From the NCBI GenBank assembly GCA_048939245.1, contig JBHLPR010000001.1, forward strand, positions 1 to 64,000: a DNA stretch of 64,000 bases, in the 5' to 3' direction. This DNA is from Promethearchaeota archaeon. GTDB taxonomy: Archaea; Asgardarchaeota; Hermodarchaeia; Hermodarchaeales; Hermodarchaeaceae. Below, piece after piece: positions 46,780 through 49,404 of the stretch (its first letter is position 1; each line of letters starts with the position of its first letter). The notes under the pieces are model-generated. The model did no database searches, was not told where the DNA came from, and saw only the letters and a program-made list of their open reading frames with translations. The translations under genes were made by a program, and so were the position numbers.

Positions 46780-46891
46780 CCAGTAAATCCCAGACCGTGA
46801 TGTTGCACGTGACGTTTTTTATTCATATCACACCATGTTTAAACTAGAGTATAGCCCTCATAGTATTGGCTGGGTATATTTGGTGAATATC

Positions 46892-47788
46892 ATGGAACCC
46901 CCAATTGTAATTGACGCACATACTCGGCATGTTTCAGGAGTAATTTTTTCACCCGATAATACTATGCTCCTTTCGTCTGGCATGGATAATCTAGTCCAAG
47001 CATGGGCTACAGAAGAATGGACACAACAACACACCTTCTTCGGTCACACAAATAGCGTGAATGCACTGGCAATAACGCCGCAAGGTGATTTTTTAATTAC
47101 AGGTTCTACTGATACGACAGTTCGGGTTTGGGTTTTTCCATCCGGAGAAGTTGAACATACACTCAGTGGACATAAGAAAACGGTATCGGCTGTCGCAGTG
47201 TCAGCATCGGGTAAATACATCGCTTCCGGGTCCTACGATGGTTATGTAAAGATTTGGGAGTTAGCCTCCGGTCAAGAAATCCTATCACTCACCGAATTTG
47301 GACGAAATATCTCTTCTGTTGATTTTTCTCCTGACGATAAATATCTAGTAGCTGGAGGCTTGGGTGATGATGTTCACTTGTGGAGTTTTCCTTCTGGCGA
47401 GCTTGTTCAAAAAATAAAAGGACATGAGACCGCGGTCAACTCCGTAACCTTTTCTCCAAATGGAGAATTACTTGGATCGATAGGATATGAAGAAACTCTG
47501 ATTATCCGGGATACTCGAAATTGGAATCCCATTCATACCATTACCCTAGAATCACGGGCAAGTGATCTAACCTTTACAGCTGACAGCAAAAAAGTAGCTG
47601 CGGCTATTGATTATGGAGTCCGAATGTGGAATCTCCGAACCGGTGAAATCGATAGGCAATATGAGTTACCGATACAAGGTGTCTATACCGTAGCGGTCTC
47701 GCCCACGCGAAGATGGCTTGCAGTGGGTTCAGCAGATGGGAAGGTTAGAATCTGGCAAATTCGAAAATCACCAAAAAAGTCCAAATAA
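46892..47788 (+). CDS. WD40-repeat beta-propeller (about 7 blades)
   Basis: Repeated GH..V..V.FSP.G..L.SGS.D..V..W units. Confidence 0.92.
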   Translation: MEPPIVIDAHTRHVSGVIFSPDNTMLLSSGMDNLVQAWATEEWTQQHTFFGHTNSVNALAITPQGDFLITGSTDTTVRVWVFPSGEVEHTLSGHKKTVSAVAVSASGKYIASGSYDGYVKIWELASGQEILSLTEFGRNISSVDFSPDDKYLVAGGLGDDVHLWSFPSGELVQKIKGHETAVNSVTFSPNGELLGSIGYEETLIIRDTRNWNPIHTITLESRASDLTFTADSKKVAAAIDYGVRMWNLRTGEIDRQYELPIQGVYTVAVSPTRRWLAVGSADGKVRIWQIRKSPKKSK

Positions 47789-47809
47789 GCCTAAACGCAA
47801 TTACCAAAA

Positions 47810-48024
47810 TAGAAGTGTTGGAGGCCTCACCAACCGAAGCTATAGCGCTGGAAGGGTCATCGGTTCTCCCCTGATGCTTCCCAGGCATCTGCTGCTGTTA
47901 CTAATCGGAAAAGGAGCGAGGGCGTCGGAGGTTAAGCGGCGCCCTCCGCCAAGAGGCAACGCCAAGAGTATTGCCTAATATGGAATCGTTAGTAACAGGT
48001 AACAACGGGTGTTGGTTATTTTTT
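47810..48024. ncRNA. Candidate structured non-coding RNA (about 200 nt)
   Basis: GC-rich intergenic segment between convergent genes with nested stems; no family recognised. Confidence 0.5.
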
Positions 48025-48075
48025 AAAGGGCTGGTGTAAAAAAAGGCACATCAAATACCCAATCGTTTCTGTGTG

Positions 48076-49281
48076 CTAATGTGAAGCGATATTGCTCAGC
48101 GATGGTCTGGTCAACTGTTGTTTTAATATGGATCGGACATCAGTCCAACTTAAGGCAACAAGAAGGGAGAATCCTACATAAGAAGCTCCAAACCATCGCC
48201 AGATTGCATAATCCATCCAATATAACGCAAAATCGTTGATATGGGTGGTGGCTGCAAAGAAAATGGGAACTAGCCAAAGTGTAACAGCAAGGCCAAGAAA
48301 TGAGATGGGCGGGGTCTGGCGGGTTTGAATTAGCCTAATTATCCACCAGCCGAGTGTACCCCAGACCAGAATCATTTGGAACACTAAAATGGCGTAGAAA
48401 ATGGGAATAGGCAAAATCGCTGGAACTGGATTAGTCGGATAATAACCATCAAAGGTTACGGGTGCTAAGACATTAAATGCGAGGACTCCAAAGCCGAACC
48501 AGAGAAAGGCACCAAGGTTATGAACGAATTCGGGTAAACTTGCAGTCAGCATCATCGATGGATCTGGGGTTGGCTGAGCAATGATAGTATGAACCAGATA
48601 CAAAATCAGCGATACTGCAACTAGACCTGAGACACTTCCTACTGCTCGCCATTGACGACGTAACAGGAAAAAGATAAGAATTGCTGGTAGTGCGAAAATG
48701 AATGTCTCTTTAATAAGAAATGCAAAAGCGATGAATCCACCCGCAAGCAAGGGCCGGCCTTTCCACGCCCAATACACTGACAAAATTGTGAAGGGCATAG
48801 CAAATAATGCAATTTGAAAGAGCGGTATCACATTAAAAAAGAAAGCATATTGCACGAAACTTGCAGCTAGTGCAGCCCAACCTGAATTCGTAATCTGGTT
48901 AACTACCCAAAACGTTAGCACCAAGTTCAACGCTGCAGCAAATACACAAAGAACACTAAGAGGAAAAACAAAACTAGTTCCTGCCCAACCCGTTAGAAAT
49001 GCTATTGGGTAAAATACCAAGGGTGTGCGATAAATCCTCAGATCACCCAGATCTCCGGTAATAAATGCTGCATGCCGCCAGGCAGTATAGAAGTCTTCGC
49101 CATTCAGCATGTAATAAATTACCGTTTTGTGCATCGTATCATCATCAAGGGCAAGGCGGGGTACAAACTCTGTTCCCCATGAATAGGAAAGAAATACCAT
49201 CCAGATTAGACTGCATACAGAAAGAAAAACGATGAACGCTGCTATTCCTTCTCGTCGAAGAAAGTCTGTAAGCGAAGGCAC
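48076..49281 (-). CDS. GT-C-fold membrane glycosyltransferase-like protein
   Basis: About 10 TM helices; DD in the first loop; YRTPL; LIKET motif. Confidence 0.7.
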   Translation of the reverse strand: MPSLTDFLRREGIAAFIVFLSVCSLIWMVFLSYSWGTEFVPRLALDDDTMHKTVIYYMLNGEDFYTAWRHAAFITGDLGDLRIYRTPLVFYPIAFLTGWAGTSFVFPLSVLCVFAAALNLVLTFWVVNQITNSGWAALAASFVQYAFFFNVIPLFQIALFAMPFTILSVYWAWKGRPLLAGGFIAFAFLIKETFIFALPAILIFFLLRRQWRAVGSVSGLVAVSLILYLVHTIIAQPTPDPSMMLTASLPEFVHNLGAFLWFGFGVLAFNVLAPVTFDGYYPTNPVPAILPIPIFYAILVFQMILVWGTLGWWIIRLIQTRQTPPISFLGLAVTLWLVPIFFAATTHINDFALYWMDYAIWRWFGASYVGFSLLVALSWTDVRSILKQQLTRPSLSNIASH

Positions 49282-49404
49282 AGAGACTACACCACTCTAT
49301 CAATGGAGAATATAATGTTCTTCTATTTGAAGAGTAACCATTCAAAAGATTTCGGCATCACGAGGGAATTAGATGTTCAAAAAGTGTCGCCAACTGTTAG
49401 CCTT

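Follow-up and report, generated by a model that had tools for sequence, protein, structure and literature searches.

A candidate structured RNA gene of Hermodarchaeia in the gap between two convergent protein genes

A short intergenic stretch of a Promethearchaeota archaeon (contig JBHLPR010000001.1; the 64,000 nucleotides analysed are referred to as the window) most likely holds a real, conserved and uncatalogued structured RNA gene, predicted to lie on the minus strand and restricted to the class Hermodarchaeia. Stated more specifically, we hold with moderate confidence that this is a stand-alone minus-strand gene for a structured non-coding RNA (ncRNA) of ~195 nt that is specific to the class. 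The first-pass annotation of the window, made from the letters alone, had proposed an uncatalogued, multi-domain ncRNA at this place, and that reading is now supported by negative searches for Rfam families, tRNA, SRP RNA and RNase P RNA, by conservation, and by a closing helix that covaries. Single-sequence folding is unremarkable (z = -2.1 for the plus strand and z = -1.0 for the minus strand), so that the case beyond chance has to be made by comparison across genomes.

Genomic setting, distribution and known RNA families

The gap separates a plus-strand gene for a seven-bladed WD40 protein (46835-47788) from a minus-strand gene for a GT87-like membrane protein (48076-49281), and the region first singled out (47810-48027) falls between both stop codons. 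It had been described as a GC-rich island between convergent genes, which is borne out, the G+C content showing a modest peak of 0.61 compared with ~0.43 in the surroundings. In the genus of the window (genus 1), the WD40 gene is placed between a geranylgeranyl reductase gene and the RNA gene, whereas in genus 2 it is missing from this position and the geranylgeranyl reductase gene abuts the element instead (46835-47788 of the window compared with locus L033). The GT87-like gene, which lies upstream on the minus strand, is retained in genus 2 with 52% identity, and the spacer between it and the element measures 50 nt here and 140 nt in genome G018. Absence of the one neighbour and retention of the other indicate that the RNA is independent of the left-hand gene. 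The GT87-like gene has an apparent TATA box ~35 nt before its start codon (49282-49330), which suggests a leaderless mRNA. The sole T/A-rich box of the WD40 gene starts 20 nt before the annotated ATG (46810-46835), too near for a normal TATA-to-start distance, and allows no conclusion there.

The element is single-copy in its own genome according to BLAST, which also found homologues with 72-87% identity over ~230 nt in 11 of the 14 congeners and in one genome of the sister genus. A survey of Asgard homologues had been suggested in the first pass; using a covariance model of the core, we found exactly one strong match in each of 14 of the 19 Hermodarchaeia genomes, in both genera, and none in the 132 sampled genomes of other Asgard classes (151 genomes of the phylum were scanned). 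BLAST over 400 genomes likewise returned no homologue outside Hermodarchaeia, and a metagenome scan added two variants of the element. A 21-base gapped motif, searched against 185,579 species genomes, matched seven archaeal and four bacterial records. By title, two of the archaeal records are Candidatus Hermodarchaeota, one carries a Hermod isolate name, and four are labelled just Promethearchaeota or uncultured archaeon; the bacterial matches are due to chance and are rejected by the covariance model. On present evidence the element is class-restricted.

Within the genus, a 101-nt core of the element is 83-98% identical, and identity is still 81% in genus 2. For the 250 nt of either flanking gene that lie next to the element, identity is 73-84% within the genus, and no counterpart is detected in genus 2, which places the non-coding stretch under stronger constraint than its coding neighbours. 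Indels of 1 nt fall between the invariant blocks of the element, which thus does not behave as coding sequence.

The element matches no catalogued RNA family. The Infernal/Rfam search that the first-pass annotation had called for gave no match in the window at the gathering thresholds of Rfam 15, nothing meaningful at E<=10 in 47600-48250 (one spurious 15-bit match), and no match at E<=1 in eight homologous loci. ARAGORN detected no tRNA or tmRNA in the window or in the homologous loci. The RNase P RNA model (RF00373) does not match the element and instead finds the RNase P RNA of this genome on another contig with 167 bits. The archaeal SRP RNA model (RF01857) has no match at the element either, and a canonical SRP RNA of ~340 nt is found in 16 of 18 relatives at another locus, including in genomes that carry the element, so that a divergent SRP RNA is rejected. 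In relatives the SRP RNA adjoins a tRNA-Ser(GCU) gene (L015-L020). The assembly of the window (G000, 88% complete) has no detectable SRP RNA, probably because of an assembly gap. We also rejected the guide RNA classes: the boxes that define a box C/D sRNA are absent from the alignments, where the sole GAUGA is internal and no CUGA is conserved, and the length is ~195 nt; the ACA (ANA) box of a box H/ACA sRNA is absent as well, the triplet after the closing helix P1 being unconserved on either strand. Resemblance of the strings GAUUAG and GAUGA to U6, U3 or U4 was dropped, as no such Rfam model matched even at E<=10.

Predicted fold of the RNA

Structure was counted in a minus-strand alignment of 16 distinct sequences and 30 pairs (Table 1). 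Standard pairs occupy 92.1% of the cells, compared with 33-59% when the partners are slid against each other. Double-sided changes occur at eight pairs, and none of 500 shuffles reached the observed covariation score. Most of this signal comes from P1, a long-range helix that joins strands separated by 85 nt and in which three positions change from AU to GC or from UA to CG in three to four sequences each.

Table 1. Features predicted in and around the RNA gene. Positions refer to the window; fractions of paired cells refer to the minus-strand alignment.
Feature	Position	Strand	Observation
RNA gene, predicted, ~195 nt	47806..48000	-	from ~4 nt before P1 to the U-tract; corresponds to the block conserved among 16 sequences
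TATA box, TTTAAAAA here and TATAAAAA in relatives	48020..48027	-	invariant in all 16 sequences
Conserved block with inverted repeat GTG...CAC, upstream of the TATA box	48030..48052	-	nearly invariant in genus 1
P1, 5' strand of closing helix	47989..47996	-	pairs with 47897-47904; 98-100% of cells paired
P1, 3' strand	47897..47904	-	partner of 47989-47996
P3 hairpin, genus 1 only	47954..47976	-	78% of cells paired; cleanly deleted in both genus-2 sequences
Unpaired C/U-rich octamer, CCUCUUGG on the RNA	47949..47956	-	identical in 14/16; one substitution each in two
P2 hairpin, 9-10 bp	47918..47946	-	95% of cells paired
C/U-rich joiner between P2 and P1, CUCCUUUUCC on the RNA	47907..47916	-	conserved in 14/16; unpaired in all consensus folds
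Near-invariant linker and 5-bp hairpin with conserved 7-nt loop	47873..47895 (hairpin 47873-47889)	-	most conserved stretch
Kink-loop-like motif	47854..47871	-	GGG/CCC stem, tandem G.A/A.G, GAU bulge, tiny capping loop
Variable hairpin Pb	47838..47849	-	differing sequence at equivalent place in most homologues
Hairpin Pa, 5-bp stem	47817..47834	-	76% of cells paired, alignment partly shifted
U-rich tract after Pa, probable termination site	47806..47812	-	T-rich in most homologues, T4-T6 in several

The ends of the gene are predicted from the spacing to the TATA box at the 5' side and from a hairpin with a U-tract at the 3' side. Transcription would start ~25-30 nt after the TATA box and would end near 47806. 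The 5' two-thirds of the RNA would form a junction of P1 and P2, joined by P3 in one genus, with two C/U-rich strands left unpaired, and the 3' third would form a row of hairpins. P3 is a variable domain. For the octamer at 47949-47956, the 5' strand of P2 is a possible alternative partner. Within the 3' third, the 47873-47889 hairpin has 93% of its cells paired and carries double changes in genus 2. Pb reaches 9 bp in G008, 7 bp in G018 and G015, and 6 bp in G006, and its alignment is too poor to be counted. Pa has UU/AA in the window and AU/AU in relatives, and looks terminator-like on the minus strand in a simple scan. As a whole, the 3' domain has a folding energy no better than chance (z about 0), and no single minimum-energy fold is common to all species. 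In two genomes, G005 (L032:1451-1552) and G010 (L027:1451-1552), this domain is replaced, kink-loop included. The replacement in G005 is a near-perfect 15-bp hairpin (z = -6.9), whereas its close relative G006 retains the kink-loop, which looks like a recent remodelling or insertion.

All helices drawn in the first pass are present in the sequence, displaced by 1 nt at most. Its closing helix (ctgttactaa, 47895-47904, with ttagtaacag, 47989-47998) is exactly in place, as are the hairpin formed by gagggcg (47918-47924) and cgccctc (47940-47946) and the one formed by gttgg (47817-47821) and ccaac (47830-47834); the competing pairing of cggagg (47926-47931) with cctccg (47943-47948) is also present. 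The hairpin of aggcaa with ttgcct (47971-47976) is found as well, with aggcaa at 47954-47959, one base from the 47953 given for it. The hairpin of ctggaag (47848-47854) with cttcccag (47877-47884) is correctly positioned; as drawn it is not conserved in the second genus, and 47848-47884 is better read, judging from the alignment, as the 5-bp hairpin plus the kink-loop-like motif.

At 47854-47871, the alignment reads as a tandem G.A/A.G beside a 3-nt bulge, formed by a GA on the 5' side and a GAUGA on the 3' side that are invariant in all 14 sequences that retain the 3' domain. The stem on the non-canonical side is the 3-bp GGG/CCC, with 90% of its cells paired and one A-U replacement, and G.U pairs arise in it on the minus strand only. 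On the side of the bulge, where a canonical stem of at least 2 bp would be expected, a 3-nt loop is closed by a single G-C pair at most, so that the motif fits a kink-loop at best and not a full kink-turn. We therefore regard 47854-47871 as a possible kink-loop and a candidate site for L7Ae; genes of the L7Ae family are present, one of them on contig 64.

Upstream of the gene, the TATA-like box and the T7 tract reported in the first pass are both in place, as TTTAAAAA at 48027-48020 and as A7 at 48038-48044 (T7 on the minus strand). In genus 2, the position of the conserved block at 48030-48052 is taken by another inverted repeat. The block tracks the RNA gene and not the end of the upstream gene, whose stop codon lies at a distance of ~50 nt here and of 140 nt in G018. 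Two congeners have an inverted repeat, GTGTAAA...GCAC, upstream of the TATA box of their SRP RNA gene (L017:1438-1456 and L019). It resembles the block at 48033-48049 of the window and differs from it in spacing and orientation; the two could reflect a site for a shared factor or a coincidence.

Strand of the transcript and rival readings

The minus strand is favoured, in our estimate clearly though well short of certainty, by sequence evidence from pairing, promoter spacing, gene neighbours and the kink-loop that would form on this strand only. In the counted helices, the minus strand has 26 G.U cells that the plus strand would show as A.C mismatches, compared with at most ~10 cells in the reverse situation (counts taken from the tool tables of the alignment). 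P2 holds eight G.U cells on the minus strand that would be mismatches on the plus strand. In both genus-2 sequences, P1 extends to 11 bp on the minus strand and includes two G.U pairs, where the plus strand has two mismatches. In all 16 sequences, 31-33 nt separate the invariant TATA box from the first base of P1. TATA spacing in the lineage is similar for the genes of RNase P RNA, SRP RNA and tRNA-Ser (33-35 nt), and the TATA block of the element shifts together with the RNA between genera. The element thus has, as predicted from sequence, the promoter of its own that marks a stand-alone archaeal sRNA gene, while on the plus side no conserved TATA box is found at a fixed distance upstream. 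The first-pass annotation had preferred the minus strand with a start ~20-25 nt after TTTAAAAA; the box at a fixed distance agrees with this, and the minus strand remains favoured only.

Some features count against this orientation and for an RNA from the plus strand, which would be a long structured 3' UTR of the upstream gene (WD40 here) or an sRNA, ending at 48003-48024. The plus strand folds slightly better, in single sequences as well as in consensus energies. The minus-strand RNA contains an internal U4 (U5 in G012), whereas the body of a plus-strand RNA is free of T-runs and would finish in a small hairpin whose loop is often UUCG, which has G.U pairs on the plus strand only and is followed by T5-T7, much like a terminator. 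One position of the 47873-47889 hairpin is U.G in 8 of 13 sequences when read on the plus strand. Yet conservation continues at the level of the body just past the T-tract, more than a plain terminator would account for, and the upstream plus-strand gene differs between genera. Together with the missing plus-strand TATA box, the wobble count, and the invariant GA and GAUGA that form a kink-loop on the minus strand only, this makes a plus-strand RNA rather unlikely. It is improbable to a much greater degree that the region yields no stable RNA and owes its conservation to signals in the DNA itself: a bidirectional terminator shared by the two convergent genes, and their regulatory sites. The convergent setting, the terminator-like features on both strands and the inverted repeat at 48030-48052 would fit such signals, but terminators and operators need neither ~190 nt of near-invariant sequence nor compensatory changes in a helix with strands 85 nt apart, and the element is conserved more than the genes it would serve.

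A small protein or its remnant is very improbable indeed. The idea arises from the best-conserved 18-mer, which reads AADAWE in one minus-strand frame and recalls Asgard ATP-cone proteins, and whose BLAST and pattern matches fall in coding regions reading A-A-x-A-W-E. That frame, however, is open for 24 codons only and has no start codon, the conserved blocks are separated by 1-nt indels, and the matches are no better than chance (E-values of 0.003-0.05 per genome in a search of 400 genomes). We likewise discarded the 18-mer matches as paralogues or targets of the RNA: two sites in its own genome with two mismatches and a weak covariance-model match in G001 are all coding and at chance level, and the BLAST matches in other Asgard classes, e.g., in ATP-cone proteins, all lie in coding A-A-x-A-W-E and are due to chance. 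Two loci from another Asgard class (L071:1305-1549 and L065:1305-1549) encode small ATP-cone-like proteins that end in ...AADAWE... and share 19-22 nt of identity with the most conserved stretch of the RNA, which we judged to be a coincidence.

Possible function and comparison with known RNAs

For the minus-strand RNA gene, we propose with low confidence, from the sequence features described above, that its product may form a small ribonucleoprotein (RNP) that is stabilised by L7Ae and acts in trans via its invariant unpaired segments. The kink-loop-like member of the 3' hairpin row would recruit L7Ae, and the unpaired segments would pair with purine-rich (Shine-Dalgarno-like) sites in mRNAs or serve as a protein-binding scaffold. 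Complements of the C/U-rich segments at 47949-47956 and 47907-47916 are not enriched in the window or at the starts of neighbouring genes. In the window, AGGAG motifs of the Shine-Dalgarno type precede ATG 21 times compared with 12.8 expected, a modest enrichment that makes a role in masking ribosome-binding sites possible, though unsupported. More speculatively, and as an unlikely option, the RNA could be the core of a Hermodarchaeia-specific RNP in which the kink-loop anchors proteins and the unpaired segments have a function without a described archaeal counterpart. Such a particle might be, e.g., a dedicated regulator of translation or RNA processing, beyond another antisense sRNA.

No organisms are known to be more closely related to eukaryotes than the Asgard archaea, whose ncRNAs are, to our knowledge, almost uncharted beyond rRNA, tRNA, SRP RNA, RNase P RNA, and guide RNAs. 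A single-copy RNA of ~195 nt that is conserved more strictly than its neighbouring genes across a class, with a conserved promoter and a possible L7Ae site, is a concrete and testable candidate for a new RNP. The covariance model and the alignment are ready for annotating Hermodarchaeia genomes.

Several known archaeal systems share features with the element. The C'/D' kink-loop of archaeal box C/D sRNAs has tandem sheared G.A pairs and a short loop in place of the canonical stem, and the element likewise has a G.A tandem of the sheared type, a short closing loop, and a GAUGA string. Unlike in these sRNAs, the sheared pairs would be formed by the second and not the first GA of GAUGA, a 5' box C and a CUGA box D/D' are lacking, and the length is ~195 nt as opposed to 50-70 nt, with no guide-target arrangement found in the element.

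Outside the guide RNAs, L7Ae interacts with many ncRNAs and mRNAs according to RIP-seq in Sulfolobus acidocaldarius (Daume et al. 2017, PMC5539422). The likeness to the L7Ae-bound non-guide RNAs is that they are archaeal and recognised through a kink-turn, which corresponds here to the conserved tandem G.A/A.G with its 3-nt bulge. There is no sequence relation between those RNAs and the element, whose host is an uncultured Asgard archaeon and whose L7Ae site is a prediction.

Trans-acting sRNAs from archaeal intergenic regions offer a further parallel. Those of, e.g., Methanosarcina mazei pair with ribosome-binding sites. The element exceeds them in size and degree of structure, and the match between its C/U tracts and the anti-Shine-Dalgarno sequence extends over only 4-5 nt; it shares with them a stand-alone gene, a predicted promoter and terminator of its own, restriction to one lineage, and exposed C/U-rich segments.
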